The notes beneath the pieces are model-generated. The model was given only the letters and a program-made list of their open reading frames with translations. It searched no databases and was not told the origin of the DNA. A DNA stretch of 64,000 nucleotides. Source: Alphaproteobacteria bacterium. Its GTDB lineage: Bacteria; Pseudomonadota; Alphaproteobacteria; UBA7887. The stretch spans positions 258,308-322,307 of the forward strand of contig OZ241745.1 of NCBI GenBank assembly GCA_965201115.1. Direction: 5' to 3'. Below, piece by piece: positions 8,813 through 64,000 of this stretch (position 1 is its first letter; each line of letters opens with the position of its first letter). Both the position numbers and the translations under genes were made by a program.

Positions 8813-8975
8813 GCGCCCCCGTCCGCCGGGGCACATGAGTGTGGGCGGCGCCGGCCCCGCGAGCGGCAATCCCCGTTTCTCCATTGCGCGCGGTACGATA
8901 CCTTGCACGGCCGTGCCGCGCCGACGCGTCGCCGACGCCGGGTTGCGCGCTTCCTCGCCGGAGCGACCCCGCCCC

Positions 8976-12323: not shown

Positions 12324-12494
12324 CTCAGTGTCTGTACCGAAATACTTACCCCGCCGAAGGCGGGGCCCGGGACCGCGGGCATCCTGCCCGCACGTTCCCG
12401 CAAGGCGCGATGTCGGCGGGGAAGCGCGAACGGACAAGACGCCCGCCGGTTCCCACCGTCCCGATAACCGCCGAATTCCGGTACAGACTCTCAG
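12324..12494. mobile_element. MITE-like element (171 bp): IS5/IS427-type terminal inverted repeats flanking a REP-like palindromic core
   Basis: TIR-L ctcagtgtctgtaccgaaat (12324-12343) and TIR-R attccggtacagactctcag (12475-12494) are about 17/20 complementary. A near-identical terminus, atttcggtacagactctgag, closes the IS5 remnant at ~22502. The REP core ccccgccgaaggcggggcccgggaccgcgggcatcctgcccgcacgttcccgcaag lies at 12352-12410 (approx). Confidence 0.5.
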
Positions 12495-17039: not shown

Positions 17040-17110
17040 GGCGCCATCGCGCCGCGGGCGCGGACTGCCCGGGACCGCGGGCGTCTCGCCCGCACGTCTC
17101 CGCCGCGCCG
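17040..17110. repeat. REP-like GC-rich palindromic repeat, variant B (gcgcggactgcccgggaccgcgggcgtctcgcccgcacgtctccg)
   Basis: Shares the cccgggaccgcgggc(a/g)tc...cccgcacgt(c/t)(c/t)ccg core with copies at about 29590, 41385, 12352, 20563, 56316-56870 and 62976-63463. Confidence 0.5.
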
Positions 17111-17198
17111 AACGCCGCCGAGAGGGGCGCGGCAGGCGCGCTTTCCGCCAACCCCCCCGGTTTTCCCGCCGCTTGCGCCCGCGCCGCCGCCGCCGTAA

Positions 17199-20562: not shown

Positions 20563-20630
20563 CGCAACCCCGCCGAAGGCGGGGCCCGGGACCGCGGGCA
20601 TCCTGCCCGCATGTTCCCGCAAGCCGCGAT
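20563..20630. repeat. REP-like repeat, variant A (gcaaccccgccgaaggcggggcccgggaccgcgggcatcctgcccgcatgttcccgcaag)
   Basis: Identical, apart from 1-2 substitutions, to the units of the tandem arrays at 56.3-56.9 kb and 62.98-63.46 kb. Lies 90 bp from the IS1380-family end. Confidence 0.6.
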
Positions 20631-20717
20631 GATGGCGGGAGAGGCGCGCCCGCGGCGCCCCGCCCGGCGCCGCCCGCCGAACGACCCGACAGCCATTACC
20701 CCCGCCATAACCGACCG

Positions 20718-21846
20718 TTAGCCAGCATTTCTCATACGGGTGGTTGCCGTGCGGTTTGTGCGGCTTTGGTTGGCGTGTGCGTGCGTATTTTCGTGGTTGG
20801 GGGCCTTGGTGGGCGTTTTCGGAGGCGCGTTGGGGCGGTCCGCCGTTTGGCGGCAGGTCGCGTTCCGGGCTGTTCCTGCGTTGTCGAGGGGAAGGGCGAG
20901 AGGGGCCGCGTTACGCCGTGGCGGCGGATAAGCGCTCGCAGGCGATACGGAACTCGCGCTGGAAGGGATGCGCGGCGTTCATGGCGATCTTGACGCGGCG
21001 CACCGCGACGCGGACCCAAGCGCCGATCTTGAGCGGTTTCAGGCGCAGGCTCCCGCATGTGGCGACCGCCGATGCGGCGCAGTGCGCACAGCAACACATA
21101 AGCCATGGACGCGAACCGCAGGCGCAGCCGGTTGGTCCGCATGGCCCGTGTCGACGTGCGGTCGGCGAACAAGTCGAGTTGGCGCTCCTCGATCCGGTTC
21201 TCCATCTCGCCGCGTTGGCAGTAGAGCCGCGCGTAGAGATGCCGGGCGCGGACCCGATGGGTTGCAATCGAGGTGACGACGAAACGCGGGTTGGCCTTGC
21301 CATGGGTCCACTCGGCCTTGGCGGCGACGCGGCGCGCAGCTCCAACTGTCGCGCGTCCTCCGCATGAAATCCTTGAAGCGGCGTTGCGGCTTGCCCGAAC
21401 CCGCGCTGTGCGCTTGCGCCGCCGCCGGTTCGGTCTCGACTTCCGCCACCGGACGGGGGGGGCCGCGCCAAGCCCAACGGGTAATCGACGCCGTTGGCCT
21501 GGCGCCATAAGTCGCATAAAGCGGAAGATAGCAATAGCCGCCGTAGTAGCCGTGGAAAAAACGACCCTCATGGCGACTGTGAAGCCGATCGTCCGTGGCG
21601 TCGAGATCGATAACCAGACGCGCCGGGGCCGCTTGTGCGCCTCCACAAACAGCGTCAGGAACAAATCCTCAATCGCCGCGCCGTCATGCGCGATCCGGCA
21701 ATACCGCGACGACCCCGCGCCCCCCAATTCAAGGCGGTTCAGCGTCGATTTGTCCGCAAGCGGCGCGCAGTCCGAACGACGCGACGCCAACTTCCCTGCC
21801 AAACGGCCATAACCGGATCGTGACGCAACGCATCATGGTCGTTCAG
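20718..21846 (-). mobile_element. IS1380-family insertion sequence, 3' portion only (right end plus transposase residues ~95 to C-terminus; degraded). Interrupted at 21846 by an IS5 element.
   Basis: Terminal sequence gttagccAgcatttctcatacgggt matches the left end of the intact copy at 63461. The transposase ORF 20732..21802 (MAGKLASRRSDCAPLADKSTLNRLELGGAG...YARLYCQRGEMENRIEERQLDLFADRTS) aligns to the second copy from about residue 95. The C-terminal third is out of frame. Confidence 0.6.
20732..21846 (-). pseudogene. IS1380-family DDE transposase, 5'-truncated by the IS5 insertion and frameshifted near the 3' end
   Basis: Reverse-complement identity with copy 2 (63800-63860) ends abruptly at 21846. 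The downstream translation degenerates into low-complexity R/P-rich sequence. Confidence 0.55.
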
Positions 21847-22522
21847 TGTTTGTATCATAATTCGGTCACTGTGATTTGGCTTTGGCCAGTCGCCTGACGA
21901 GGAGCTGGACGCTGGCGAGGAAGAGCCATGCGCGGGCGCTTTCGATGGCGGTTTCGAAGTCCCTGGCGAGGCGGCGGTTGCGATCGAGCCACGCCAGCGT
22001 GCGCTCGACTACCCAGCGTCTGCGCGGCAGTTCGAAGCCCGACGCGGCGTCGGAGCGCTTGACGATCCCGATTGTCCATTGCCCGCGACTGCGCGGTGCG
22101 GTTTCGAGTTTGGGGCCGGCATAGGCGCCGTCGGCGAAGACATGCCGCAGTTCCGGCCAGGTTGCCTGCGCCGACACCGGCAGGTCGGGCGCGCCATCGC
22201 GGTCCTGTCCATCTGCGGTCCGAACGCGCGCGGCGAGCGGAAAACCCGCGGTATCGGCGACAATATGGCGTTTGCGGCCCTTCACCCGCTTGCCCGCGTC
22301 GTAGCCGCGCGGCCCGCCGCTTTCCGTGGTCTTTACCGAGCGGCATGTCCGACTCGACAAGCCGCCACTCGTCATCGATGAGGTCGCTTGCATACCGCAG
22401 GTGCTTGCGCTCATACTGCGCGCGAGCGATTTCGGTCCACATGCTGTGCCTCGCTGGCTTGCTTCATCGCAACCGGCATACACAACATACTGAAATCACT
22501 CAACTCCATTTCGGTACAGACT
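21847..22522 (-). mobile_element. IS5-family (IS427 group) element with an internal ~230-bp deletion (non-autonomous remnant)
   Basis: OrfA N-terminus MWTEIARAQYERKHLRYASDLIDDEWRLVESDMPLGK runs directly, with a frame jump, into SVKTTESGGPRGYDAGKRVKGRKRHIVADT...ADGAYAGPKL...RRWVVERTLAWL...RLARDFE (OrfB DDE region). The ~75 aa normally between them (TTDLREV...QSVK) is missing. The right terminus atttcggtacagactctgag is at about 22502-22521. Confidence 0.6.
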
Positions 22523-24754: not shown

Positions 24755-24755
24755 G

Positions 24756-28607: not shown

Positions 28608-29416
28608 TGCATCTTCTCGATCCACAGCGATGCCAGCTGATGGCCGAGCCCCCCTTGCGCCAGGTTGGGCAAGGTAAGCGCGGCGCCGCGGCCGATGGCC
28701 GCCATGTTCGGCGTCTGGCTCGCCAGGCGTTCATGGTCGTTCGCATACCAGCCGCCGCGCCCGAAACGGGCCATGTCGTATATGAACTGGCACATCGAAT
28801 AGTCCTTGAATTTCTTTCTGTTGGGTTGCTTCCTGAACGCGCTGTCGCGATACTGGCGCTCAAGCACGACGTGCAGATACAGCGTTCGGATGGGGGTCTT
28901 GCCGCCGCGGTCCTCGCCGCGCGCCCGCGCACACCCCAAGGCGTTCTTGACCGTCGCGAAAAACTCGTCGCGCGCAAACGGCGCGCCGTCGAGTTTCTCC
29001 TTCGCATCCCGGATACGGGCGAACAGGCGCGCGCCATCGGTCTCGTCGAACATGTCCAGCTTCTCGCTGCCGAGATACAACGTCACGCGCGCAAGGCGGT
29101 ACTGGACCTTGAAGCAATCGACCCAGTCGTAATTCTGCAACCTGCGCGTCGGCCATCCCGCGTCGCCCGCGGCGTTGTGCAGCGCTTCCCTGCGCTTCGC
29201 GAGTTTGTCTTCGACGCGGCGCTTGAGCGCGTCCCGGCGCTTTTCGAGGGTTTCGACCAACCCGCTCTCCGAAACCTCGCGTACGGCGTCGATGGTCTTG
29301 TCGATCAAAGACAGCAAGGGCAGGTCGTCGTCCGGCTTGGCGCGCGACAAGGCATCGGTCGTGCGCTTTGCCTTGGCGACGCCCTTCTTTATGGCCTGAA
29401 TTTCGTCGTCGAGCAC
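28604..29416 (-). CDS. hypothetical protein, first gene of the ATPase-helicase operon (coiled-coil N-terminus, no recognisable domain)
   Basis: GTG start with a GGGAGG Shine-Dalgarno 8 nt upstream. The track ORF extends to 29773 but that extension runs through a REP element and is R/P-rich junk. About 270 aa, with WVDCFKVQYRLARVTLYLGSEKLDMFDETDG...YLHVVLERQYRDSAF. Confidence 0.5.
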   Translation of the reverse strand: MLDDEIQAIKKGVAKAKRTTDALSRAKPDDDLPLLSLIDKTIDAVREVSESGLVETLEKRRDALKRRVEDKLAKRREALHNAAGDAGWPTRRLQNYDWVDCFKVQYRLARVTLYLGSEKLDMFDETDGARLFARIRDAKEKLDGAPFARDEFFATVKNALGCARARGEDRGGKTPIRTLYLHVVLERQYRDSAFRKQPNRKKFKDYSMCQFIYDMARFGRGGWYANDHERLASQTPNMAAIGRGAALTLPNLAQGGLGHQLASLWIEKMQ

Positions 29417-29579: not shown

Positions 29580-29660
29580 GCGCTGTCGGCGAGACGCCCG
29601 CGCCGAAGGCGCGGACTGCCCGGGACCGCGGGCGTCCCCGCCCGCACGTCCCGACCGTCC
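29580..29660. repeat. REP-like repeat, variant B, in the divergent promoter region between the defense-like operon and kefB-like gene
   Basis: gacgcccgcgccgaaggcgcggactgcccgggaccgcgggcgtccccgcccgcacgtcccgaccgtcccg. Confidence 0.5.
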
Positions 29661-29915
29661 CGAACGAGGCCGGGCAGGGCGCGTCGCCGGCGCGCGCGCC
29701 CGGACTGCCGGTCGTCTGGACAACCCGCGGATATATTTCTATAATGTTCCCATGACCGCCGCCTCCCGCGCAACCTCCGCCCGCGCCGCCGCTCGGCGGG
29801 CGCCCGGCGCGCCGGCCCGGGCGGGAGCCCCGCAGAGCCCCGCGGATCCCCGCAACGCCCTTGCCCGCCCGGCGCCGCGCGTCGCGCGGCGGGGATATGC
29901 TATGTTCGGCGGGGC

Positions 29916-31655: not shown

Positions 31656-32963
31656 ATGTTGCTGCGTTTCGGCGTGTCGAACCATCTGTCGATCCGCGAC
31701 TTTCAGGCACTGCTGCTGACGCCTGCCGCGTTGCGGGAACCGGCGGAGGGGTTGATCTCGTGCCCGCCCGCGCCCGGAGGCAAACTGCTTCCCGCCGCCG
31801 TCATCTACGGCGCCAACGCGTCCGGCAAGACGAATTGCATCCACGCCATGCATTTCATGCGCCATCTGGTGTTGGGTTCTCATGCCCACGGGAAGCCGGG
31901 CGAGAATGTCCCGCGCTATCCTTTCAAACTCGATCCGGCCTGCATCGATACGCCGTCGCGCTTCGAAATCGATTTCGTCCTCGACGACGGCGTGCGCTAC
32001 CATTACGGTTTCGAGGCGTCCGACAAGGCGTTCGAATCGGAATGGTTGTACGCCTTCCCCAAGGCGCGCCGCCGGATATTGTTCGAGCGCGACGGAAGCG
32101 ACTATCGTTTCGGCCGCTGGTTGGCAGGCAAAAACGAGATCGTTCGGGGCTTGACCAGACCCAACAGCCTGTACGTTTCGGCGGCGGCGCAGAACGGGCA
32201 TGAGCAGCTGTCCGGTATCTTCGGGTACTTCGAAGCGCTTCATGGCGTTGGCGCTACCGACGTTACGGGCGTGGAGGGCATATTACGGTTCGCCGGAGAC
32301 GAACCGGACCGTCGAACGATCGATTTTCTCGAGCATGTCGGCATTGCGGTATCGGGATACAGAAAAAAGAAAGACGATATGTACGCCAGGATCGGGAACG
32401 ATATGAAAAAAATCGGGGCCATGACCGGCATTCCCGAGGGAGCGGCGGCGTCCGAAGCGTTGCATGACCGCTTTGCGATACTGGCGAGGGACGGGGAACT
32501 GCAACTCGCTCATCGCAGCTGGGCGGGCAACGACGTTTACCTTGAGCTGGAACGGGAAAGCGCGGGCACGCGGCGGCTGCTTCTCGTATTGCGCGAGACG
32601 TATCGTGCGCTGGACAAGGGCTTGCCGTTGGCGATCGACGAACTGGACGCCAGCTTGCACACTCAGGCCGCCAAATCGGTGCTCGGCCTGTTTTGCTCTC
32701 ATGAGACGAATCCGAACGGCGCGCAACTGATCGCGACGACTCACGATACCAACCTGATGAAGGTCCGGATGTCGACGCGGGACCGGATTCTGAGGCAGGA
32801 TCAAATCTGGTTCGCGGAGCAGGGGCGGGATGGCGAGACGACCCTGTATCCGCTTACCGATTACCGGACTCGCAAGGGCGATAATATCGAGAGGGAGTAC
32901 TTGCAGGGCCGTTACGGCGCGACGCCTCTCGATGATATTGTCACGGGCCATGGCGCGGCGTAG
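31656..32963 (+). CDS. AAA_21/AAA_15-type ABC-like ATPase (AbiLi-like abortive-infection ATPase)
   Basis: Walker A at the N-terminus (IYGANASGKTN); D-loop/Walker B LAIDELDASLH; H-loop ATTHDTNL. 435 aa. Confidence 0.75.
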   Translation: MLLRFGVSNHLSIRDFQALLLTPAALREPAEGLISCPPAPGGKLLPAAVIYGANASGKTNCIHAMHFMRHLVLGSHAHGKPGENVPRYPFKLDPACIDTPSRFEIDFVLDDGVRYHYGFEASDKAFESEWLYAFPKARRRILFERDGSDYRFGRWLAGKNEIVRGLTRPNSLYVSAAAQNGHEQLSGIFGYFEALHGVGATDVTGVEGILRFAGDEPDRRTIDFLEHVGIAVSGYRKKKDDMYARIGNDMKKIGAMTGIPEGAAASEALHDRFAILARDGELQLAHRSWAGNDVYLELERESAGTRRLLLVLRETYRALDKGLPLAIDELDASLHTQAAKSVLGLFCSHETNPNGAQLIATTHDTNLMKVRMSTRDRILRQDQIWFAEQGRDGETTLYPLTDYRTRKGDNIEREYLQGRYGATPLDDIVTGHGAA

Positions 32964-36931: not shown

Positions 36932-38827
36932 ATGAAATACCTGTCGGACGCCGCAATACGGTGGGCTATCGACCGGTTGCGAAAAGGGTCGCACCCGTTT
37001 CTCGGCATCACCTTTCTGGCGTGCAAATCGGCAGGCTTGCCTGTCGGTTCGACCGCGCGCGTGCGCCTGGACCGGGTGACGCGGGAGCATCTCGACCGCC
37101 ACCACCGTTTGGCGCCGCAAAGCGACTGTTATTTTCAGCCGTTCGGCGGGAAGAAGGCGTGGGTGGGGCCAAAGTACCCATCGAAGGGGCTCCAGCCTTT
37201 TAATACGGGAAAATTCGCGCGCGCATTCCGGCATCCCGGGGGAACACAGGAATGGGGTTTCGTCGAGAACTACGTCGATGAGATTGCCGACGTCGGGCGA
37301 TACGCCTTGGATCTTCAAGCTGTATCGGTATGGGTGCTGAAGGATCGGAAGTGGTCCGACCGCGACTCCTTGGAAACGGTGATCGATTGTTTTCTCGAGT
37401 CGTACAGAATTACAAAATACGAGCGTGACAATCTGTTCTCCATGGATGGGTTTGGAATGGCGGATGAATTGGCAAACGAGGATGTATCGCATTGCGGTAT
37501 ATTCGACGAGCGCCCGCCGGATTTGAGAGGTATCGCATTTCGATACGGCGCCCCGCCGGATAACAAGGTCGACAAGAAGCGCTCTCGACTGCTTCGTTTG
37601 GCGCTGTCGGATGTCGGACCGTCCAAAAGACTAAGCATGGATTTGGGGAAACGTCTAACGCTAATTGCAGGCGACAACGGTTTGGGGAAATCGTTTATTC
37701 TGGATGTTATATGGTGGGCAATAACAGGAAATTGGCTCGGACGGCCCGCGTTGCCTTTCGACGTGTTAGAGAATGGCTGCAACAAGGTCGCAGCAACGAT
37801 AGAGTTTAAGGTTGCGATGGATGAGGCGCCGAGTGTAACAGCGAAGGGTTATTTTCATCGGGATACCCATTCGTGGAACATGGACAGCGAAAGACCCCGG
37901 TTATCTTCCTTGTGTATTTTCGTCAGGGTCGATGGTTCGTTTGCGGTCGCCGATGAAATGCGAGCCAGATTTGGGAACGGCAATCGATCCGGCATCGGTT
38001 ATTTTACGAGGGCCGAAGTATGGGATGGCAAACCGGGGGAGATCGAGGGTATGGTTCGGGACTGGATCGCCTGGCAGCTGTCTCCCGACCGCGAGACATT
38101 CTCGAAATTGGAGAAAGTTCTTGCCTGCTTGTCCCCGGAAGATCTAGGGCGTATAAAGCCGGGGGATCCGGCGCGGCTTCCCGGAGACCCGCGGCAAATA
38201 CCGACTATCGTTCATCCCTACGGGACTGTCCCTGTCGTGTTCTCGTCCGCCGGCGTTCAGAGTATTCTTCTTCTGACATATATGATGACATGGGTATGGC
38301 ATGAACACAAGATCGCCGCCCGGCAGCTGGGCGAGGAGCCGTTTGGAAGGATGACAATAATCCTGGACGAAGTAGAGGCCCACCTGCACCCGCGATGGCA
38401 GAGGACTGTTTTGCCTGCGTTGATGGGAATCGGCGATCTTTTGCAGAAAGATATAGCGGTGCAGGTCGTTGCTTCTACGCACTCCCCTATGGTGTTGGCG
38501 TCCATGGAGACGATGTTCTCGCATGGCAGCGATGTACTGTATCATCTGCTTCTAAAGGATTCGGCGGTGGTATTGGAGGAAATCGAGTTTCAAAAATACG
38601 GTGATGTATCGGCGTGGCTGATGTCTTCGGTTTTCGGGCTGCGGCATGCGCGCTCGCGCGAGGCAGAGGAGGCGATAGAGGCAGCAAAAAAAGCGCAGCT
38701 GTCGAGCATGGATGATAAATCGGAGGTAGAGAATATATCCAATAAATTGAAACGTGCATTGGCGGGCGACGATCCGTTTTGGCCGCGGTGGATATTCTTT
38801 GCGGAAGAAAGGGGGGTATCGTTATGA
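36932..38827 (+). CDS. AAA_15/21-type ATPase (Septu PtuA-like) with an additional ~240-aa N-terminal domain of unknown function; located in a low-GC island
   Basis: Walker A LIAGDNGLGKSF sits at about residue 245 rather than at the N-terminus. Walker B/D-loop MTIILDEVEAHLHP; H-loop VVASTHSP. 631 aa. Local GC is markedly lower than flanking DNA. Confidence 0.65.
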   Translation: MKYLSDAAIRWAIDRLRKGSHPFLGITFLACKSAGLPVGSTARVRLDRVTREHLDRHHRLAPQSDCYFQPFGGKKAWVGPKYPSKGLQPFNTGKFARAFRHPGGTQEWGFVENYVDEIADVGRYALDLQAVSVWVLKDRKWSDRDSLETVIDCFLESYRITKYERDNLFSMDGFGMADELANEDVSHCGIFDERPPDLRGIAFRYGAPPDNKVDKKRSRLLRLALSDVGPSKRLSMDLGKRLTLIAGDNGLGKSFILDVIWWAITGNWLGRPALPFDVLENGCNKVAATIEFKVAMDEAPSVTAKGYFHRDTHSWNMDSERPRLSSLCIFVRVDGSFAVADEMRARFGNGNRSGIGYFTRAEVWDGKPGEIEGMVRDWIAWQLSPDRETFSKLEKVLACLSPEDLGRIKPGDPARLPGDPRQIPTIVHPYGTVPVVFSSAGVQSILLLTYMMTWVWHEHKIAARQLGEEPFGRMTIILDEVEAHLHPRWQRTVLPALMGIGDLLQKDIAVQVVASTHSPMVLASMETMFSHGSDVLYHLLLKDSAVVLEEIEFQKYGDVSAWLMSSVFGLRHARSREAEEAIEAAKKAQLSSMDDKSEVENISNKLKRALAGDDPFWPRWIFFAEERGVSL

Positions 38828-41374: not shown

Positions 41375-41415
41375 TACGGGACCGCGGGCGTCCCCGCCCG
41401 CACGTCCCGACATGC
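41375..41415. repeat. REP-like repeat, variant B (partial), downstream of the autotransporter stop
   Basis: cgggaccgcgggcgtccccgcccgcacgtcccgac. Confidence 0.4.
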
Positions 41416-41521
41416 GCAAACGCCGCCGCGCCGGGCGCGACGATCGCCGCTCCCCGGCAACAGCGCGGCCCGCGGCAACGTGCGGGCGAGACGCCCGCGC
41501 GCCCGGGAAGCGCGCCCGCGA

Positions 41522-44500
41522 TCAGAACCGCACGGTGAGTGCGGCGCTGCCGCTGAAGTCGCGGTTGCCGTTGCGGGCGGCGGCGTAGGCGGCGTTGGCG
41601 CGCAGCGCTATGCGGCCGTCGGCCCATTCATGGGCGGCGCCCAGGCCGAGGCGGGCCCATGTCGCTTCCGCTTCGGCCTTGAAGGGCGGCCTGTCTTCCG
41701 CCGTCGCCTCCATTGCGCCCGACAGTTCGCGCTCCAGGTCCAGCGTTGCGAACATGGCGCCGGCGCCGCCGGGGAGGGCGGCGGACTCGGCGCGCACGCC
41801 CGCGCGCGCCGTAATCCGTCGACCGGCGTCCAGAGACACGCGCTCGCCCATCGCGTCCGTGAACGACGACATCTCCACCATCGACCAATCGGCGCCCGCG
41901 CGCGGCGTCAGCGCCACGCGGCCCAGGTCGAGCCGCCGCCCGATCTCCACGCCGGCGGCGTAGCCGCGGCCCGAAAGATCGCGCGCAAGCGCGCCCTCGA
42001 GCGCCGCATCCGAATCGAGGTCCGCCTCGTACAGCGTCGCCGCGGCATGGCCGCTCACATAGACGTTCTCCGCCGGCAGCCACGCGCCCGATATGCGCGC
42101 CCCCGTGCCGGTTATCTCGATGCGGCCGCCGCCCGCCTCGGTGTCCGCGTCCGCCTCCACATCCGCGCGGCCGCGCACATGATGAACGGAGACAGCGAAC
42201 ACGCCGCGCTCGCCCGCCGCGCCCTCTATCCCCGCCTCGAACCCGAAGCGGCGATAGTCGTGGCGCGCCGCCGCCGTCGAGGAGGCCGGATGGCGCTCGC
42301 CGCCGCCGGCGTCGAGACGCGCGAACGCCCCCCGCGGCGCGCCCGCGGCGGCGAACCGGTCGCCGTGGGCGGGCAGCGCGTTCAGCGCCAGCAGCGCCGA
42401 AGGCAGCGCCTCGTACACGCGATGCCGCGGCGCAGGCCCGACCTCGATACGCTCGTCGCCGGTTATCCGGAGCATCGAATCGGCGCGGCCCTCGCGCTCG
42501 AGGACGATGGTGGCGCCGCCGGCCTCGATGCGTCCGCCGCCGACGCGCAGCACGGCGTCTTCGTCCGATTCGCCCGCGGCGGCCTTCACTGTCACCGCGG
42601 CCGCGCCGGCGATGGGCTCCTCGATGCGTCCGTTCTCGCCCACCGTCACCGCGCCGCGGGGCGCATCGACGCTCTTCACCGCGCCGTTCACCTCGACCGT
42701 GCTGCCGGTCCCCGCCAGCGTGACCCGGCCGTCGATTTCGCCGCCGGCCCCCACCGTCACGGTCGAAGCGGCGCCGGCGTCGCGCGCCTCCACGGCGCCT
42801 TCCACCATGCCATCGACCGTCATGCTCAGCGCGCCGGTTTCGGCGACGACCGCAACGCGCCGGCCCTGCGCGTCTTCCGCGCCCACGAGTTCGCCGCCCG
42901 CGGCAACCTCGACCTTGCCGCCGGCGGGAACATGCAACATGCCTTCCGCATCCCCGGCCATGGCGATGAACTCGACGCCCCGGACGTTCCCCCTGAACTC
43001 CGCGCCGGACGCCACCGTCAGCCGATGCGCGCCGCCGCCGCCGCCGATGACGTCGCCCGTCAGCGCGTTCGCGACCGCCACCGTCAGCGCCCCGGGGCCC
43101 AGGTCCTCGATGCTGCCCACGACATTGCCGTTCACCATCACCGTCAGGTCGCCGCGGGCGTTGCGCACCGCCCGCCCGTCGAGGCCCGATATGCGCCCCC
43201 CGGAACTCACCTCGACCGTTCCGCCGCGGTCGAACTGCACGCTCGCGGCCGCGCCATCGACCGTAACCTTGCTGGCCGCGAGGCGGATGAGACCCTCGAC
43301 CGATCCGCCCGATTTCACATGAACGTCGTGTTCGCCGCCGCCGAGGCCGAATATCCCGCCCTCGACGGTTCCGCTCACATCCACGTCCAGGTCGCCCTCG
43401 CCCTCGCCGCGGATGGCGCCCGTCACGGTCGCCCGCGCCGCCACGTCCACCGTCAGATCGCCCGCCGCGCTCCGGATCGCCTCGCGACCGCGGTCCGACG
43501 TATCGATGCCCGTTACCGCGCCGCCGGACGCAACCGTGACCGAGCCGCCGTTGTCGTAGAGTACGCGCCCCACGCGGCCCGCCACTGTCATCGCGCTCGT
43601 CGGCAGATGCACCGTGCCTGTCACCGCGCCGCCGGCCATCGCTGCAACCGTGTGCGAACCCGCGCCTGTCCCGCCGATGTCGCCTTCGACCGTCCCGCTC
43701 ACTTCCACGTCCAGGTCGCCGTCGCCCGCGCCGCGGATATCGCCGGTCACGGTCGCCCGCGCCGCAACATCCACCTCCAGATCGCCCGCCGCGCTGCGTA
43801 TCGCTTCGCGACCGCCGTCCCCGGTCTCGACGCCGGCAATACTCCCCGTCGCCGCAACCATCACCGATCCGCCATTGTCGTAAAGCACCCGCCCCACGCG
43901 GCCCGCAATCGTCATCGCGCTTGTCGGAAGATGCACGGTCCCCGTCACCGCGCCGCCGGCCATCACCGCAACCGTGTGCGAACCCGCGCCCATGCCGCGA
44001 ATGCCGCCGGTAACCGTCCCCGTCACCGTCGCCGTCAAATCCCCCGCGCCGCGCTCCTCGATGTCGCCCGTCACGCGGCCCGCCACCGATGCAACCAGAT
44101 CGCCGGCCTCCATATCCACGATATCGCCCGTCACCATGCCGCCGGACGCGACCGTAACCTCGTGCTTGCCGGCGCCCTTGCCGTGGATGGCGCCCGTCAC
44201 CGCGCCGCCCACATTCACGGTCATGGCGCCCGCGCCGCGCCCCTCGATGCGGCCCATGACCGCCCCGCCGGACGCAACCGACACCGTCAGGTCCCCCGCG
44301 TCGGCGCGAATCGCCTCGCCGCCGACGCCGGCGATGCGGCCCGTCGCCGCAACCGTCAACGCGCCGCCGTTGTCGAACAGGACGCGCCCCGCAGCGCCGC
44401 GGATCGTCGTCCCGCTCTTCGGGTTATGCACCGTCCCCAACACCCGCGCCTTCTCAGCGATCTCGATGGTATGCACGCCGCCGCCGCGACCGAAAATCTC

Positions 44501-47500
44501 CCCGTTAATCGTGCCGGTCTCCGACACCGTCACCGTCAGGTCGCCATCGCCGCGCGCCTCGATATTGCCCGCGACCGTCCCGTGAACGGTGACCGCCAAA
44601 TCGCCCGCGTCGCCGCGGATCGCCTCCTTCGTTCCGTCGATATCGAGGCCCGTAATCTCGCCGCTGGCGTTGACCGTAACCGCGCCCCCGTTGTCGTAGT
44701 GGACGCGCCCGACATCGCCCGAGACCGTCAGCGCCGCGCCTGTCGGCAGGCGCACCGTTCCGGCAATGGCGCCCGACGACGCCACCGTAACCGTGTGTTC
44801 GCCCGCGCCCTCGCCGGTAACGCCGCCCGTCACCGTTCCGGCGACCGTGACGTCCAGGTCGCCCGCGCCGCGCTCGGCGATATCGCCCGTCACCGCGCCG
44901 GCGACGTCGACCTCGAGATCGCCGCCGCCGCGGCCCTCGACGAGGCCCGTGACCGCGCCATTGGCCGCGACCGTGACGTCGAGATCGCCCGCGTCGGCGC
45001 GAATCGCCTCGGTCGTTCCATCGTTATCGACGCCCGTTACCGCGCCGCCGCCGGCGACCGTAACCGTCCCGCCGTCGTCGTAGAGAATGCGCCCGGCGCT
45101 GCCGCGCACGGTCGTCGGACTCGCGGGGTTGCGTATCGTGCCCGTCACGACGCCGCCGGCCATGACGTTCGCCGTCAACGCGCCGTCGCCGGAGGGGCGA
45201 AGACCGCCCTCGATCCGGCCCGCTACCGTGACGGAAAGATCGCCCGACACGGCGCGAATCGTCTCGGTCGCGCCGTCGATCGCGATGCCCGTAATCGCAC
45301 CGCCCCTGGCGACCGTAACTGTCCCCCCGCCGGCATAGAGAATACGTCCGACGCTGCCGCCCACGGTCATCGGACTCGCGGGGTTGTGTATCGTGCCCGT
45401 CACCGCGCCGCCGGCGTTGACGGTTGCCGTCAGCGTGCCGCCCGACTTGACGTCGCCCTCGACGCGGATCCCGTCGTTCACCGTGACGGTCAGCGCGCCG
45501 GCCGCGCTCTCGATGGCCACGCCCTCGACGCCGGTCAGCGTCCCGCTCCCGGACACCGTCACCGTCCCGCCGCTGGCGTAAAGAATGCGCCCGATGCTGC
45601 CCGCGACTGCAAGCGCGGTCTGCGGGTCGTGTATCGTCCCCGTCACGACGCCGCCGTCCATGACATTCGCCGTCAACGAGCCGCCGCCATCGACGCGGAT
45701 GTCGCCCGTGACCCGCCCCGAAACGGTGGCCGTCAGAGCGCCGCCGCCGTCGCCGAGGATGGCGACGCCCGATGTTGCGCTCACCTCGCCGTCCGCGCCC
45801 ACGGTCACCGCGCCGCCGCCGAACAGATGCACGCCCGCGCCGGTTCCGCCCATCGCGGCCCCGTGTACCGTCACCTGCTGGTTGCGCACGCCGCTTGTGA
45901 CGCCCGCGCCGCGGACATAAATGCCCTTCGCCCCGCCGGTAACCCGCGCGCCCGCCGCAACCGTCACCGCGATGGCGCCGTTGCTGGCATGCGGAACGAC
46001 GTAAAGCGCCTCCACGCCGTTCCCCTCGGCGTCGATGGCGCCGCCGGTCACGTCCACATGGATGTCGCCGGCGTTGTAGGTCAGCGCGTGTTGCCGGACC
46101 GCGTTCTTCCAGTCGGCGTCGTAGGCAGCGTCGGGAAGGGCGGTCAGCGCCGCCTCCAGATCGGTCCCCGACCCCTTCGTCAACACGGCCGTCAGCGCCG
46201 CGCGCTCAGCGGTCGAAAGCGCGTCGCCGGCGCGGACACGATCGGCGATCGCCGTGTGCGACAGCGCCATGGCGCGAACGCCCGCGCTCGAAAGGCCCAA
46301 AATCTCCTCCGCCGCCGCGTGCGCCAGCGGGCCGTCGCCGGTCGCCGCGGCGGCCGCCGCGGCGCGCTTGCGCCGGAGATCCTCCGCCTCCGCCTTCCAG
46401 GCGGCGTCGTAAGAAGCCGGGAGCGCCGCCAGCGCCGTCGTCAGCGCGCTCGAATCGTTCGCCGTTATCGCCGCAAGCACGGCCTGTTCCGCCGCCGACA
46501 GCGTCTCGTCGGCGCCCGCGATCCGGCCCCGGATGAAAGCCTCCGTCACCGGCGCGCCCACCATGATGCTTCCGCTCGACGTAACGTGGATCATCGGCGT
46601 CGTCCGCGCCGCGTCGTCCGCCGTCGTGGCGCCCGCGCCCATCGTGTGGCCGCTCGACCGCGGGGCCCACGCGAGAACGCCGGCATCCCGCGCCTCGACC
46701 GCGCCCCCATGCGTGACCGCGATGCGCCCCGTGGCGCTCGCGTTGTTCGTAAGCCGCCCCTCCATGCCGATGGAGAACGGCGACGCGATCTTCGCCGGCG
46801 CCGCCGTCGTCATAGCGACCGAGCCGAGGTTCAGGGAGTGCGTCAGAATGCCCTTGGCGTCCAGCCCCTCCACCGCGATGCTGCCGCCGGTCACGGCAAT
46901 GGGAACCGTCTTGCCGGCCGCGAGGGCGGAGAACACCCCCACAACGCCGTGGGCGTTGTCCTGCTCCGTCACGATGGAGCCGCCCGACATGCGGAAGGAG
47001 TGGTTGCCGGGCCCGTTGCCGCGCTCCATGACAACCCCATGGGCGGAGAACCCGAAGGAGGACCCGCCCCGCGTGCGGATCGCGCCGCCCTCGACGATGA
47101 CGGTTATGTCGCCTGCCCCCGTGCCGTTGGAAAGGGCCAGGACGCCATAGCTGCCAGCTCCCGTCGTCTCGACCGAGCCGTCTGCCATGCGGATGGAGAG
47201 GTTGCCCGTCCCGTTGTTTTGGCCGTGGATGGCGTAATTGAAGTTGCCCGCCGCCTTGATGACGGCGTTGCCGGAGACGACGATGGATGCGTTGCCCGAC
47301 CCGCCGCTGAGTATTTGGGCGACGAGTTTGCCGGCGAGGGAGCCGCCGCTCATGCTGGCGGAGACGTTGCCCGCCCACATTCTCCCGCCGGTGACGGAGG
47401 CGTTGCCCGTGAGGGAGGCGCCCGTTATGCCGATGGCGCCGTTGCCCGACCCGAGCGCCCGGACTACAACGCTCAGGCCGCCCGACCCTGTGAGTGTGGC

Positions 47501-47737
47501 GCCGGACTTTACGCTGACGGTTACGTTGCCGGAGCCGCTGTGCTCGGCGTCGATGCGCGGGATGTTGACGCTTCCCGGGTCGACGACGATGTGGGCGCTG
47601 CTGCCGGCGGCTTCGGTGCAGGAAATGCTCGCGCTGCCCGTATGCGCGCCGCCGCGGCACTCGGTCTGCGCCGCCGCCTCCCCGGCCCACAAGGCGAGCG
47701 CGAGAACCAGCCCCGGCGCGAGCGCCCGGACGCTCAT
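41522..47737 (-). CDS. giant autotransporter adhesin (type Va secretion; beta-helical repeat passenger + C-terminal beta-barrel translocator)
   Basis: Signal peptide MSVRALAPGLVLALALWAGEAAAQ. Dozens of ~70-aa G/T/V-rich repeats (GGAVTGTIHNPASPMTVGGSVGRILY...). The C-terminal ~280 aa have an autotransporter barrel signature ending ...SAALTVRF. 2071 aa. Confidence 0.85.
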   Translation of the reverse strand: MSVRALAPGLVLALALWAGEAAAQTECRGGAHTGSASISCTEAAGSSAHIVVDPGSVNIPRIDAEHSGSGNVTVSVKSGATLTGSGGLSVVVRALGSGNGAIGITGASLTGNASVTGGRMWAGNVSASMSGGSLAGKLVAQILSGGSGNASIVVSGNAVIKAAGNFNYAIHGQNNGTGNLSIRMADGSVETTGAGSYGVLALSNGTGAGDITVIVEGGAIRTRGGSSFGFSAHGVVMERGNGPGNHSFRMSGGSIVTEQDNAHGVVGVFSALAAGKTVPIAVTGGSIAVEGLDAKGILTHSLNLGSVAMTTAAPAKIASPFSIGMEGRLTNNASATGRIAVTHGGAVEARDAGVLAWAPRSSGHTMGAGATTADDAARTTPMIHVTSSGSIMVGAPVTEAFIRGRIAGADETLSAAEQAVLAAITANDSSALTTALAALPASYDAAWKAEAEDLRRKRAAAAAAATGDGPLAHAAAEEILGLSSAGVRAMALSHTAIADRVRAGDALSTAERAALTAVLTKGSGTDLEAALTALPDAAYDADWKNAVRQHALTYNAGDIHVDVTGGAIDAEGNGVEALYVVPHASNGAIAVTVAAGARVTGGAKGIYVRGAGVTSGVRNQQVTVHGAAMGGTGAGVHLFGGGAVTVGADGEVSATSGVAILGDGGGALTATVSGRVTGDIRVDGGGSLTANVMDGGVVTGTIHDPQTALAVAGSIGRILYASGGTVTVSGSGTLTGVEGVAIESAAGALTVTVNDGIRVEGDVKSGGTLTATVNAGGAVTGTIHNPASPMTVGGSVGRILYAGGGTVTVARGGAITGIAIDGATETIRAVSGDLSVTVAGRIEGGLRPSGDGALTANVMAGGVVTGTIRNPASPTTVRGSAGRILYDDGGTVTVAGGGAVTGVDNDGTTEAIRADAGDLDVTVAANGAVTGLVEGRGGGDLEVDVAGAVTGDIAERGAGDLDVTVAGTVTGGVTGEGAGEHTVTVASSGAIAGTVRLPTGAALTVSGDVGRVHYDNGGAVTVNASGEITGLDIDGTKEAIRGDAGDLAVTVHGTVAGNIEARGDGDLTVTVSETGTINGEIFGRGGGVHTIEIAEKARVLGTVHNPKSGTTIRGAAGRVLFDNGGALTVAATGRIAGVGGEAIRADAGDLTVSVASGGAVMGRIEGRGAGAMTVNVGGAVTGAIHGKGAGKHEVTVASGGMVTGDIVDMEAGDLVASVAGRVTGDIEERGAGDLTATVTGTVTGGIRGMGAGSHTVAVMAGGAVTGTVHLPTSAMTIAGRVGRVLYDNGGSVMVAATGSIAGVETGDGGREAIRSAAGDLEVDVAARATVTGDIRGAGDGDLDVEVSGTVEGDIGGTGAGSHTVAAMAGGAVTGTVHLPTSAMTVAGRVGRVLYDNGGSVTVASGGAVTGIDTSDRGREAIRSAAGDLTVDVAARATVTGAIRGEGEGDLDVDVSGTVEGGIFGLGGGEHDVHVKSGGSVEGLIRLAASKVTVDGAAASVQFDRGGTVEVSSGGRISGLDGRAVRNARGDLTVMVNGNVVGSIEDLGPGALTVAVANALTGDVIGGGGGAHRLTVASGAEFRGNVRGVEFIAMAGDAEGMLHVPAGGKVEVAAGGELVGAEDAQGRRVAVVAETGALSMTVDGMVEGAVEARDAGAASTVTVGAGGEIDGRVTLAGTGSTVEVNGAVKSVDAPRGAVTVGENGRIEEPIAGAAAVTVKAAAGESDEDAVLRVGGGRIEAGGATIVLEREGRADSMLRITGDERIEVGPAPRHRVYEALPSALLALNALPAHGDRFAAAGAPRGAFARLDAGGGERHPASSTAAARHDYRRFGFEAGIEGAAGERGVFAVSVHHVRGRADVEADADTEAGGGRIEITGTGARISGAWLPAENVYVSGHAAATLYEADLDSDAALEGALARDLSGRGYAAGVEIGRRLDLGRVALTPRAGADWSMVEMSSFTDAMGERVSLDAGRRITARAGVRAESAALPGGAGAMFATLDLERELSGAMEATAEDRPPFKAEAEATWARLGLGAAHEWADGRIALRANAAYAAARNGNRDFSGSAALTVRF

Positions 47738-47761
47738 GGCGCGTTTCCCGAGGCGGGCCGC

Positions 47762-47781
47762 GGGGGGGGGGGGGGGGGGGG
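47762..47781. repeat. homopolymeric G20 (C20 on the coding strand) tract about 25 nt upstream of the autotransporter start codon
   Basis: cg-g(20)-tacg read directly from the sequence; lies in the promoter/5'UTR of the 6.2-kb adhesin gene. Confidence 0.8.
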
Positions 47782-56315: not shown

Positions 56316-56870
56316 CCGCAACCCCGCCGCAGGCGGCCCCGCCTGGGCGCGCGGGCGTCCCCGCCCGCACGCCTTCGCCGCAACCCCGCCGAAGGCGGGG
56401 CCCGGGACCGCGGGCATCCTGCCCGCACGTTCCCGCAATGCGCGACGCCGCCGGGAAGGGCGCAGCGGTGCCGCAACCCCGCCGAAGGCGGGGCCCGGGA
56501 CCGCGGGCATCCTGCCCGCACGTTCCCGCAATGCGCGACGTCGCCGGGAAGGGCGCGCCGCCGCCGCAACCGCCGCAACCCCGCCGAAGGCGGGGCCTGG
56601 GACCGCGGGCATCCTGCCCGCACGTTCCCGCCAAGCGCGATGTCGCCGGGAAGGGCGCGCCGCACTTCCTGGGTGCGCGGGCGTCCCCGCCCGCACGTCG
56701 CCGCAATGCGCGATGTCGCCGGGAAGGGCGCAGCGCCGCCGCAACCGCCGCAACCCCGCCGAAGACGGGGCCTGGGACCGCGGGCATCCTGCCCGCACGT
56801 CGCCGCAATGCGCGACGTCGCCGGGAAGGGCGCACCGCCGCCAAAACCGCCGCCAACCCCGCCGCCGGCC
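56316..56870. repeat. tandem array of REP-like units (about 5 full units, 95-110-bp period) directly upstream of the rRNA operon
   Basis: Repeated gcaaccccgccgaaggcggggcc(c/t)gggaccgcgggcatcctgcccgcacgt(t/c)(c/g)ccgcaatgcgcgacg(c/t)cgccgggaagggcgc, separated by short GC-rich linkers. One unit is the variant-B form. Confidence 0.8.
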
Positions 56871-57303: not shown

Positions 57304-58816
<1,513 letters not shown>

Positions 58817-59000
58817 CGCGCCCCCCGCGGGCCAGCCCGCAAAGGCGCGTCGCCTCAACATACCCCGCCGCCGGCGGCGCAAGCCCCGGGCGGCGGACCG
58901 GCGCCCGAAGCCCCCGCGCCGCCGCCTGCGTATCCCTTCCCCGGAGCCGAAGCGCAGCGCCCCGCAACGATGGCGCCGCAACGCGCCGGCCGCGCGGAGC

Positions 59001-59077
59001 GGGCCTGTAGCTCAGTCGGTCAGAGCGCACGCCTGATAAGCGTGAGGTCGGTAGTTCGAGTCTACCCAGGCCCACCA
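59001..59077 (+). tRNA. tRNA-Ile (GAT) in the 16S-23S spacer
   Basis: GGGCCTGTAGCTCAGTCGGTCAGAGCGCACGCCTGATAAGCGTGAGGTCGGTAGTTCGAGTCTACCCAGGCCCACCA. Confidence 0.95.
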
Positions 59078-59118
59078 CGGCCCATGCGCGGCGCAACTTG
59101 CGCCGCAAACGCCGAATC

Positions 59119-59194
59119 GGGGGCGTAGCTCAGTCGGGAGAGCGCCTGCTTTGCAAGCAGGAGGTCATCGGTTCGATTCCGTTCGCCTCCACCA
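59119..59194 (+). tRNA. tRNA-Ala (TGC) in the 16S-23S spacer
   Basis: GGGGGCGTAGCTCAGTCGGGAGAGCGCCTGCTTTGCAAGCAGGAGGTCATCGGTTCGATTCCGTTCGCCTCCACCA, with a G3:U70 identity pair. Confidence 0.95.
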
Positions 59195-59401
59195 CGGCGG
59201 CGCGCGAAACGGCTCGGGAAGATAACCATTCCGCGCCCCCTCGGGCCCACGGCCCGGGCGGCGCGGCGTTTTGACATCGTGAAGAGGTCTGGCGTTGGAC
59301 CTGCGCGCAACCGCCCCCCAACGGGCGGCGGCGCAAGGGTCCGACGGGCTGAGTATCGCGGAACGACGCGGCGGGCTCGCGCCCGCGCACGGAATCCGCG
59401 G

Positions 59402-62257
<2,856 letters not shown>

Positions 62258-62335
62258 GCAACCCCGTGCCCGGGCGCGAACCCGCCGCACAAACCCGCGA
62301 TACACAGCCCACCCGCCCCCGCGGCGGGGCCCGGC

Positions 62336-62454
62336 AGACCCGGTGGTCATAGCGAGGGGCATGTACCCGATCCCATCCCGAACTCGGCCGTGAAGACCCT
62401 CAGCGCCGATGGTACTGCGTCCCAAGACGTGGGAGAGTAGGTCGCCGCCGGGTC
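62336..62454 (+). rRNA. rrf: 5S ribosomal RNA
   Basis: ...CGGTGGTCATAGCGAGGGGCATGTACCCGATCCCATCCCGAACTCGGCCGTGAAGACCCTCAGCGCCGATGGTACTGCGTCCCAAGACGTGGGAGAGTAGGTCGCCGCCGGGTCT. Ends approximate. Confidence 0.85.
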
Positions 62455-62506
62455 TCCCCGGCCCCGCCCCCCAACGCCAGCCCTCTGAAACCGATGCAAA
62501 CGCACA

Positions 62507-62583
<77 letters not shown>

Positions 62584-62626
62584 CCCGCAACCACCCCCCC
62601 CCCCCCGCACCGAAGACGCAAACTCC

Positions 62627-62655
62627 CCGAAGAGAAACCGCCGCCGAATTTCGGC
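62627..62655. terminator. bidirectional intrinsic-terminator-like hairpin between the rRNA operon (+) and a convergent small gene (-)
   Basis: aaccgccgccgaatttcggcggcggtt forms a perfect 12-bp stem. TTCTCTT follows on the minus strand. The plus strand has only a weak U-rich tract. Confidence 0.5.
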
Positions 62656-62667
62656 GGCGGTTCCGGG

Positions 62668-62856
62668 TTATCGGCTTGTTGCCTTGGGTTGGTTATTGTC
62701 CCGGCCCTTGCCGGAAGGGTTGCCCGTTGTGCTCGGCAAACCGGCGCTCTGTTTGCCGCCGCCTTGTTTCCCGCTTCCAGCCTTGCCGCCGCCGTGCTTC
62801 GCAGCGCCGCCGCGGCTGCCGCCGCCACGGCCGCCGCCGCCTCGTTTGCCAGCCAT
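62668..62856 (-). CDS. small glycine/lysine-rich KGG-repeat protein (stress-induced YciG-like)
   Basis: 62 aa: MAGKRGGGGRGGGSRGGAAKHGGGKAGSGKQGGGKQSAG.... Strong AAGGAG Shine-Dalgarno 7 nt upstream of the ATG, in a GC-rich genome. Confidence 0.55.
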   Translation of the reverse strand: MAGKRGGGGRGGGSRGGAAKHGGGKAGSGKQGGGKQSAGLPSTTGNPSGKGRDNNQPKATSR

Positions 62857-62975: not shown

Positions 62976-63463
62976 AACCCCGCCGAAGGCGGGGCCCGGG
63001 ACCGCGGGCATCCTGCCCGCACGTTCCCGCAAGGCGCCCCCCCCGGCGCGTAAGCGCGCCGCCGGCTTGCGCAAGACGCAACCCCGCCGAAGGCGGGGCC
63101 CGGGACCGCGGGCATCCTGCCCGCACGTTCCCGCAAGCCGCGCCCCCGGCATGTAAGCGCGCGCCGGCTTGCGCAAGACGCAACCCCGCCGAAGGCGGGG
63201 CCCGGGACCGCGGGCATCCTGCCCGCACGTTCCCGCAAGGCGCACGCCCGGCATGTAAGCGCGCCGCCGGCTTGCGCAGGACGCAACCCCGCCGAAGGCG
63301 GGGCCCGGGACCGCGGGCATCCTGCCCGCACGTTCCCGCAAGGCGCGCCCCCGGCATGTTAGCGCGCCGCCGGCTTGCGCAAGACGCAACCCCGCCGAAG
63401 GCGGGGCCCGGGACCGCGGGCATCCTGCCCGCACGTTCCCGCAAGCCGCACGCCCCGCGTGTT
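62976..63463. repeat. tandem array of five REP-like units (102-103-bp period) downstream of the rRNA operon, abutting the IS1380-family left end
   Basis: Five copies of (g)caaccccgccgaaggcggggcccgggaccgcgggcatcctgcccgcacgttcccgcaag(g/c)cgc...ccggcatgt(a/t)agcgcgccgccggcttgcgcaagac. The last unit is cut at ...gttagcc by the IS. Confidence 0.85.
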
Positions 63464-64000
63464 AGCCCGCATTTCTCATACGGGTTTGGGGCATCGGGGC
63501 TCTGTGTGCGATATAGTGTTGTTGAGTATGCACATATCGCGGCACGGAGGTGTTCCCCGATGCAGACGGAGTGTAGCACGGCGCTGGGCGGTTTTCAACC
63601 GGTCGACGGTCGCGCGGTTGTGGCGGCGTTCGACGGCGGGACGGTGACGTCGGACGCGGGGGCATTGTTGCCTGGCCGGGCGGATGCGGCGGTGGGTCTG
63701 GTCGATCGGTTTGCGGCCTGTTTCACCGATGGGCGTGCGCGTCATCTTGTCGAGCACGATGTTCGGACGCTGGTCATGCAGCGCGTGTTCGGGATCGCAT
63801 TGGGATATGAGGACCTGAACGACCACGATGCGTTGCGTCACGATCCGGTCATGGCCGTGTTGGCGGGGAAGTTGGCGTCGCGTCGTTCGGACTGTGCGCC
63901 GCTTGCGGGCAAATCGACGCTGAACCGCCTTGAGTTGGGGGGCGCGGGGCCGTCGCGGTATTGCCGGATCGCGCATGACGGCTCGGCGATTGAGGATTTG
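63461..64000 (+). mobile_element. IS1380-family insertion sequence, left end and 5' part of transposase (continues beyond the window)
   Basis: Terminus gttagcccgcatttctcatacgggt, the same as the inverted end at 20718-20742. Transposase CDS runs 63560 to beyond 64000 (MQTECSTALGGFQPVDGRAVVAAFDGGTVTSDAGALL...LRHDPVMAVLAGKLASRRSDCAPLAGKSTLNRLE), with a GGAGG Shine-Dalgarno sequence. Confidence 0.75.

Follow-up and report, generated by a model that had tools for sequence, protein, structure and literature searches.

The subject of this analysis is a 64,000-nucleotide stretch of the chromosome of an alphaproteobacterium (contig OZ241745.1, positions 258,308 to 322,307; hereafter, the window) and a family of GC-rich hairpin repeats that it contains. 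The repeats are dispersed between genes and form a tandem array on each side of a ribosomal RNA (rrn) operon. We consider it probable that the unit of this family is a repetitive extragenic palindrome (REP) belonging to a family of REP-associated tyrosine transposases (RAYTs), and that it has been fused to extra modules and copied head-to-tail as selfish or neutral DNA. A cognate RAYT of the HUH/Y1 type recognizes such REPs as single-stranded DNA. The main evidence comes from the structure of one of the two hairpins in the unit, from its occurrence beside RAYT genes in other bacteria, and from its distribution in the window and among related strains.

A hairpin with a constant foot and its transposase neighbors

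The unit holds two hairpins, which we call modules A and B. Module B reads YGGGACC-GCGGGCR-TCC-YGCCCGC-ACGT, in which a foot, YGGGACC, is followed by a perfect 7-bp hairpin and then ACGT. It is a REP in the strict sense. The stem of module B is 7 bp and its loop 3-4 nt. Two variants are present in the window, as the original prediction, made by a model from the DNA letters alone, had proposed. Variant 1 (GCGGGCA-TCC-TGCCCGC) and variant 2 (GCGGGCG-TC(C/T)(C)-CGCCCGC) differ by a compensated pair. With related strains and other hosts included, the stem is altered on both sides at two positions while the foot is constant: GCGGGCG/CGCCCGC and GCGGGCA/TGCCCGC are joined there by GCGGGCT/AGCCCGC, GCAGGCG/CGCCTGC, and GCCGGCG/CGCCGGC. 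The stem thus covaries in a way that keeps pairing, with the foot YGGGACC fixed. In full the foot is C(C/T)GGGACC, or CTGGGAGC in some hosts, and does not match the canonical GTAG in its general form, GT[AG]G. The original prediction had described this part of the repeat as an imperfect palindrome, but it is in fact the perfect 7-bp hairpin GCGGGCA-TCC-TGCCCGC nested in an outer CGGGA(C)/(G)TTCCCG stem. Module A is likewise a perfect 7-bp hairpin, CCCCGCC-GAA-GGCGGGG; here the predicted stem was right, while the loop is the 3-nt GAA rather than four nucleotides. On the 3' side of module B lies linker C in the array upstream of the rrn operon (array 1) and at the dispersed sites, and an unrelated linker D in the array downstream of it (array 2). 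We also considered module C as an inverted REP remnant without a hairpin. This was rejected, because true doublets, in the window (41378-41504) and in the related-strain contig L027, hold C between both REPs.

Module B is not limited to this bacterium. A near-invariant 25-nt form, CTGGGACCGCGGGCGTCCCGCCCGC, is found in metagenome-assembled genomes (MAGs) labeled Acidobacteriota, Planctomycetota, and Armatimonadia. A scan of a genome collection returned MAGs labeled Aridibacter, Pyrinomonadaceae, Armatimonadia, Frigoriglobus, and other Planctomycetota, in which the unit reads CCTGGGACCGCGGGCGTCCCGCCCGC and usually occurs as convergent doublets just 3' of stop codons. These labels are those of the record titles; a Singulisphaera isolate plasmid and the source names of RAYT matches independently support Planctomycetota and Acidobacteriota. 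The plasmid is pSINAC01 of Singulisphaera acidiphila. Module B is also present in 11 contigs of a viral collection, and the exact 25-mer in at least 120 soil-metagenome stretches. Arrangement and neighbors were surveyed in 80 of these metagenome loci, holding 141 units. Forty-four of 53 adjacent pairs are convergent, with spacers of 12-80 nt, nine are direct and none is divergent. The low number of direct pairs agrees with the earlier remark that a tandem organization is unusual for REPs. One viral-collection contig (L018, 2768-2880) carries the REP as a tight 37-nt tandem of three units with identical 14-nt spacers, another head-to-tail arrangement, found outside the alphaproteobacterial lineage.

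To identify neighboring transposases, six-frame open reading frames (ORFs) of the 80 loci were screened with transposase queries, and every match used was confirmed by Pfam. Y1 transposase ORFs are present in five of the 80 loci, and in four of them the ORF is 29-117 nt from a unit. RAYT genes flanked by the unit are known from L061, L057, L097, L101, and L152, and all five of these RAYT ORFs match Pfam Y1_Tnp; in L057, L097, and L101 the REPs are 29-117 nt from the gene. The layout of L061 is a textbook one: two REPs on the plus strand are followed by a 204-aa RAYT gene, with the motifs PNHVH and YIENNPV, and then by two REPs on the minus strand. A homolog on a 2.66-Mb contig (L152) has a plus-strand REP 102 nt upstream and a minus-strand REP 40 nt downstream. 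On NCBIfam NF047646, "REP-associated tyrosine transposase" (equivalog cut-off 80), the proteins of L061 and L152 reach 91-95 bits, and the L152 protein aligns with E. coli TnpA-REP (PDB 4ER8) at E = 2e-8. The RAYT family is large, with 5759 matches, many of them named RayT by their source. Other hosts therefore have what is expected of a REP, namely a cognate RAYT flanked by inverted copies, and the label "REP-like" of the original prediction is strengthened by exact or near-exact copies flanking RAYT genes in five loci. At 4336-5347 of L152, foot variants (GGGAGC) and a variant 1 hairpin (GCGGGCATCCTGCCCGC) are found in the same genome as this clear REP and RAYT system, or REPtron, so that both window variants coexist in distant hosts too.

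Copies in the window, the chromosome, and related strains

A structural census of the window finds 17 module B hairpins, 16 of them on the plus strand, and 11 of the 17 have the full 58-nt core. The prediction had counted at least 14 occurrences of a core of about 60 nt, and the presence of the repeats is confirmed. The hairpin of module A, CCCCGCCGAAGGCGGGG, has 12 matches with up to two mismatches, against 0.18 expected from shuffles, and the 30-nt core of module B has 11 matches with up to three mismatches, against 0.00 expected; every match of either is on the plus strand. The copies occupy seven intergenic loci, five dispersed sites and the two tandem arrays (Table 1). Together with at least five further arrays elsewhere on the chromosome (below), 17 hairpins per 64 kb at seven intergenic loci make the family multi-copy, extragenic, and dispersed. 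The five dispersed sites had been predicted as singletons; this is correct for four, and the copy at 41384 is paired with an inverted copy at 41482 and is thus part of a doublet. It is the only inverted pair of the repeat-doublet (REPIN) type among the seven loci; one single unit of the window corresponds to a doublet in L027. The second hairpin (A) and the linker modules (C, D, and others) are additions to the REP arm in this alphaproteobacterial lineage, and most window copies are "half doublets" in one orientation.

Table 1. Repeat loci of the window and the rrn operon between the two arrays (module B hairpins are on the plus strand unless marked).
Feature	Coordinates	Strand	Module B hairpin starts	Composition	Setting
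Dispersed unit	12348..12440	+	12375	A + B variant 1 + linker C	Between tRNA-Asn (+) and 3' end of TauD-like gene (-)
Dispersed unit	17048..17142	+	17077	A' (GCGCCGCGGGCGCGGACTGCC) + B variant 2 (GCGGGCG-TCT-CGCCCGC) + C-like tail	Between MIP channel gene (-) and aminotransferase gene (+)
Dispersed unit	20566..20718	+	20594	A + B variant 1 + C + linker	Begins 24 nt 3' of molybdopterin oxidoreductase stop codon; truncated by IS1380-family end at 20727
Dispersed unit	29596..29699	+	29628	A' + B variant 2 + C'	Upstream of Na+/H+ exchanger gene, far edge of apparent strain-specific island
Convergent inverted doublet, REPIN-like	41378-41405 and 41478-41504	+ and -	41384, 41482 (minus strand)	B variant 2; 80 nt between hairpins	Between 2071-aa ORF and rhodanese gene
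Array 1	56316..56870	+	56351, 56410, 56503, 56605, 56677, 56780	Six head-to-tail A/B/C units, hairpin variants 1 and 2 mixed	Between minus-strand transporter gene (start 56217) and rrn promoter (TTGACA ~56985)
rrn operon (context, not repeat family)	57304..62593	+		16S (57304-58807), tRNA-Ile, tRNA-Ala, 23S, 5S, tRNA-Met (62517-62593)	
Array 2	62976..63470	+	63004, 63108, 63210, 63313, 63416	Five head-to-tail units, A + B variant 1 + linker D, spacing 102-104 nt	Upstream of 62-aa Gly-rich minus-strand ORF; last unit abuts IS1380-family element

The genomic settings are varied. Divergent promoter regions hold the units at 17048 and 29596 and array 1; the unit at 12348 is at a convergent tRNA/gene end, that at 20566 at a gene 3' end, and the doublet at 41378 between co-oriented genes. 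All units are intergenic and have no fixed relation to transcription. The 29596 unit folds as a long hairpin (-70 kcal/mol, z = -2.0), and so does the doublet, as a single one (-85.7 kcal/mol, z = -3.8, none of 200 shuffles as good). The unit at 12348 is nested between inverted flanks, GTCTGTACCG.AAT and ATTCCGGTACAGAC (window 12325-12495; the 5' flank can also be written GTCTGTACCGAAAT), and may have been inserted into the loop of an older terminator hairpin common to tRNA-Asn and the convergent gene.

The source chromosome, of 3,674,140 bp, was examined as DNA within the window and, beyond it, through records of array-derived ORFs: array 2 was translated on the minus strand and searched against a protein collection. 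Five spurious array-derived ORFs are encoded elsewhere on the same chromosome; none derives from the window, to which their tblastn identity is below 70%, and their sequences are runs of the same core joined by other linkers. The chromosome therefore has at least five further arrays, and the repeat is not confined to the window; such confinement was one of the outcomes that would have refuted the original prediction. Two more matches in the protein collection led to contigs of related strains. One (L029) carries an array in which variants 2 and 1 alternate, beginning immediately 3' of the stop codon that ends a gene for an AMP-binding enzyme, and the other (L030) a cluster of units in mixed orientation; the neighbors in both contigs are ordinary genes. 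The composite A+B pattern had zero matches in the Joint Genome Institute (JGI) metagenomes, and array 1 had none in a plasmid collection. The composite seems peculiar to this lineage, unless the JGI collection does not include that lineage.

Related strains differ in number and kind of units. Repeat units are present at the same rrn-upstream site in L008, L009, and L010, which are independent metagenome assemblies and rule out that the array is an assembly artifact, a concern raised with the prediction. L008, about 95.5% identical to the window, has three units there in place of six. In L027, which is 98% identical, the 12348 unit is unchanged. At the 20566 site, however, L027 has hairpin variant 2 and an inverted partner, as against the single variant 1 unit of the window, and the window has an IS1380 remnant and a 9-kb island where L027 has that partner. 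The 17048 unit is present in related strains but is decaying, with its hairpin broken in L026; an apparent duplication of this unit in L027 spans a scaffold gap and was not used. Because unit number, variants, and decay all differ between strains, the units seem subject to gain and loss, conversion, and decay, and not to purifying selection on single copies. The differences in unit number and hairpin variant point to recombination or gene conversion.

Arrays at the rrn operon and how they may have arisen

Array 1 ends 434 nt before 16S, and array 2 starts 383 nt after tRNA-Met, much as predicted (about 400 bp on either side). The predicted size of array 2, five units, is also correct, while array 1 holds six B hairpins rather than about five units. 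Tandem Repeats Finder resolves array 2 as period 103 with 4.8 copies (94% matches, score 869), and array 1 as overlapping periods of 93, 102, and 175 (77-95% matches). Array 1 is the older, mixed array. The 16S gene of the operon is only about 89.5% identical to those of Skermanella and Tistrella. Between tRNA-Met and array 2, at 62671-62856 on the minus strand, is a 62-aa glycine-rich ORF, for which the protein collection has no exact entry; a bidirectional terminator-like hairpin follows it at 62637-62660.

Both arrays have the same orientation and are direct repeats, with identical 58-nt cores about 6.2 kb apart. Recombination between them could therefore delete or duplicate the operon but not invert it. 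The original prediction had allowed for copy-number change or inversion; the second is ruled out, and the first is possible in principle, with no evidence found for either a deletion or a duplication. A clustered regularly interspaced short palindromic repeat (CRISPR) array was rejected, since the segments between the cores are also repeated (94% identity across the 103-nt unit) and no CRISPR family reaches the Rfam gathering score.

We next weighed whether the arrays serve the rrn operon as cis-acting protein-binding or topological elements, comparable to Fis/UP-type activators or to the E. coli BIME-2 gyrase sites (BIME, bacterial interspersed mosaic element) that buffer supercoiling. They do stand on both flanks of the operon, an array is kept at the same upstream site in L008-L010, and BIMEs in E. 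coli bind IHF, gyrase, and Pol I. On the other hand, similar arrays are present in at least five other places in the genome and after the AMP-binding enzyme gene in L029. Between strains, as in L008, conservation is poor for the number and sequence of the units and good for the adjacent rrn promoter, and about 110 nt separate the end of array 1 from the -35 element downstream of it. We regard such a role as unlikely. The association with rrn, which had been a central part of the prediction, is real in position and involves both flanks, but it is not exclusive and is without demonstrated function.

A role as RNA is less likely still. If the arrays were transcribed on the minus strand, they would present A-GGA-U loops (GCGGGC-AGGAU-GCCCGC) and could act as a CsrA/RsmA-type sponge or as a regulator in the 5' untranslated region of downstream minus-strand genes. 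Both arrays do lie 5' of minus-strand genes (starts 56217 and 62856), GGA is in the hairpin loops on that strand, and there are weak minus-strand Rfam matches to rsmX (E = 4) and CcsR1 (E = 0.3). Their scores, however, are far under the gathering thresholds (14.7 versus 56 and 16.5 versus 65), and no promoter-like or terminator-like site bounds the arrays. The dispersed units lie 5' of genes, 3' of genes, or between them, with no consistent relation to transcription; the hairpin z-scores are modest, and the same hairpin flanks RAYT genes. Rfam gave no family at gathering score for the window arrays or for 13 loci, a permissive scan of the window arrays gave none either, and no promoter-like site was found in or beside either array. 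There is thus no sign of an RNA gene, and we consider regulation of this kind very improbable.

A REP family that has been fused and amplified accounts better for these observations. In the original dispersal, a RAYT would have acted on single-stranded DNA. Head-to-tail amplification of the 93-103-nt composite units would have come about through unequal recombination or replication slippage, so that arrays grow and shrink, and gene conversion between copies would swap and spread the hairpin variants. Arrays would accumulate in tolerant intergenic regions, including both flanks of this rrn operon. They would be selfish or neutral DNA and hotspots of recombination rather than regulators specific to rrn. 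The direct repeats around the operon could occasionally mediate its loss or duplication. The arrays are likely hotspots of strain-level rearrangement. The repeats also break short-read assemblies and create spurious ORFs, at least seven of which are in the protein collection.

Several points weigh against this account. A search of the window and of about 65 kb of contigs from related strains detected no RAYT gene, and a resident cognate RAYT is hypothetical. G+C content is 52-56% in the five loci where REPs flank a RAYT, and the relatives of the L061 RAYT that have names belong to Pyrinomonadaceae (Acidobacteriota), with none from Alphaproteobacteria. The foot differs from the canonical GTAG. 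Head-to-tail arrays are atypical of REPs, and we infer the mechanism of their amplification. An array persists at the rrn-upstream site in L008, at about 95.5% identity, so that a local role, for example in binding a protein or buffering supercoiling, is conceivable. Finally, the six single-orientation loci share the direction of rrn without exception (two-sided chance about 0.03), and neutral recombination does not explain this. The shared orientation would fit targeting of the lagging-strand template, if the plus strand is the leading strand; as a guide to replication direction, GC skew was uninformative across the window.

This orientation bias raises a broader and more doubtful possibility: that a single REPtron lineage has reached four phyla or more (Acidobacteriota, Planctomycetota, Armatimonadota, and Alphaproteobacteria) and has preserved its 25-nt REP with hardly a change in all of them. 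Published descriptions usually present REP/RAYT systems as lineage-specific and inherited vertically. The proposal would instead call for repeated horizontal transfer of RAYT and REPs, or for an unusually rigid protein-DNA recognition code. It would further mean that the REP here became a composite of two hairpins, multiplying in head-to-tail arrays with a strand bias; a RAYT that joins single-stranded units on the lagging-strand template could produce such arrays. We think this unlikely on balance. A near-invariant 25-mer in several phyla, with a clear cognate RAYT, is in any case suited to the study of the RAYT-REP recognition code and of horizontal REPtron movement.

Two repeat units have attracted insertion sequences (ISs). 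An element of the IS1380 family (Pfam DDE_Tnp_1_4) begins at 63470 and continues past the window edge (63470-64000), and a degenerate inverted copy of the same family lies at 20727-21802, followed by IS5-like fragments (stretch 20727-22483). Both IS ends read C(C/A)GCATTTCTCATACGGGT and come directly after GTTAGC in the repeat linker, which hints that the IS1380-family element targets these linkers. The contact between IS and repeat at 20727 and 63470, each directly after GTTAGC, also suggests another origin, in which the units are non-autonomous miniature inverted-repeat transposable elements moved by a DDE transposase, such as that of the adjoining element, and not by a RAYT. The doublet layout does resemble terminal inverted repeats. 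But the IS ends are unlike the repeat arms, no target-site duplications were seen, and each arm is a hairpin with a covarying stem, the signature of a Y1 substrate. The recurrent neighbors are RAYT genes, four of them REP-adjacent in the 80 loci, and not DDE genes. An origin through a DDE transposase therefore has very little to recommend it over dispersal by a RAYT.

Other features of the window bear less directly on the repeats. At 22544-28625 on the minus strand, a DEAD/DEAH helicase and three BrxC/BrxD-like ATPase ORFs have lower third-position GC, and this block is absent from L027; it looks like a strain-specific, defense-like island bounded by the repeat units at 20566 and 29596. An MmeI/Eco57I-like N6 methylase ORF (8835-12029, plus strand) and AAA_21/AAA_15 ATPase ORFs (31656-32963 and 36932-38827, both plus strand) may be further defense or foreign DNA, and the stretch at 36-40 kb has 59% G+C, against 68% overall. 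The 2071-aa minus-strand ORF (41522-47781) has no Pfam match and contains internal tandem repeats of 324 nt and 255 nt; it was considered as an autotransporter, for which Pfam gives no support. Some 25 nt upstream of the start of this ORF lies a run of 20 G (47762-47781), which may be a phase-variation tract. The ends of metagenome contigs L008-L011 all fall within about 280 nt of the G run, that of L008 exactly on it.

Comparison with known systems

Module B resembles the REPs and REPINs of the REPtrons of E. coli and Pseudomonas (PDB 4ER8) in its short hairpin, conserved unpaired 5' foot, and covarying stem. Its copies are likewise extragenic, multi-copy, and dispersed, form convergent doublets in most hosts, and flank a RAYT gene in inverted orientation on its two sides. 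It differs in the foot, YGGGACC or CTGGGAGC where GTAG is canonical, and in a 25-nt form that is nearly invariant across phyla, whereas REPs are usually lineage-specific. The source genome also differs, with mostly single-orientation units that have an added second hairpin, and with no RAYT located in the sequence examined. The mosaic repeat clusters of E. coli (BIMEs), Neisseria, and Rhizobium (RIMEs, Rhizobium-specific intergenic mosaic elements) likewise combine REPs with a few recurring linkers and vary in size between strains. However, REPs alternate in BIMEs, while both arrays here run in one orientation, head-to-tail, and the repeating unit is a composite of 93-103 nt.

A literature search by repeat sequence returned nothing relevant. 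The same hairpin has been published for Aequorivita sublithincola, where a RAYT gene of subclass 2.6 (AFL81591.1) is flanked by GCTGG-CGCGGGCG-TCC-CGCCCGTG (Quentin et al. 2018, PMC6006769, Table S1). The hairpin, CGCGGGCG-TCC-CGCCCG, is identical. Its CTGG-type foot (GCTGG), however, stands directly against the stem, without the extra GAC, and the host is a low-GC Bacteroidetes; the RAYTs found here (PNHVH, YIENNPV) fit the subclass 2.4 signature (YIxNNP) better than that of 2.6 (PMC6006769). The class 3 HuH-Y1 associated structures of the same study have a similar phylum range (Planctomycetes/Acidobacteria/Proteobacteria), but were rejected, as their CnGA foot and GAGCCGCGACCGTAAGGGAGCG-type structure differ in sequence. 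We also compared the CGTC-tagged REPs (Di Nocera et al. 2013, PMC3733652), which are REP-like hairpins of alphaproteobacteria as well, and some window copies do have CGTC just 3' of the stem. In those families, stems of 8-9 bp start with A/T pairs, loops are 4-5 nt long, a CCA tail is present, and there is no transposase associated with the repeats (PMC3733652). Membership in this superfamily was rejected, as the present stem has 7 bp, all of them G/C, the loop has 3-4 nt, and the CCA tail is absent. Taken together, this is a genuine REP family whose RAYT partner can be identified and whose organization here is unusual; the cross-phylum invariance of the REP and the head-to-tail composite arrays stand out.

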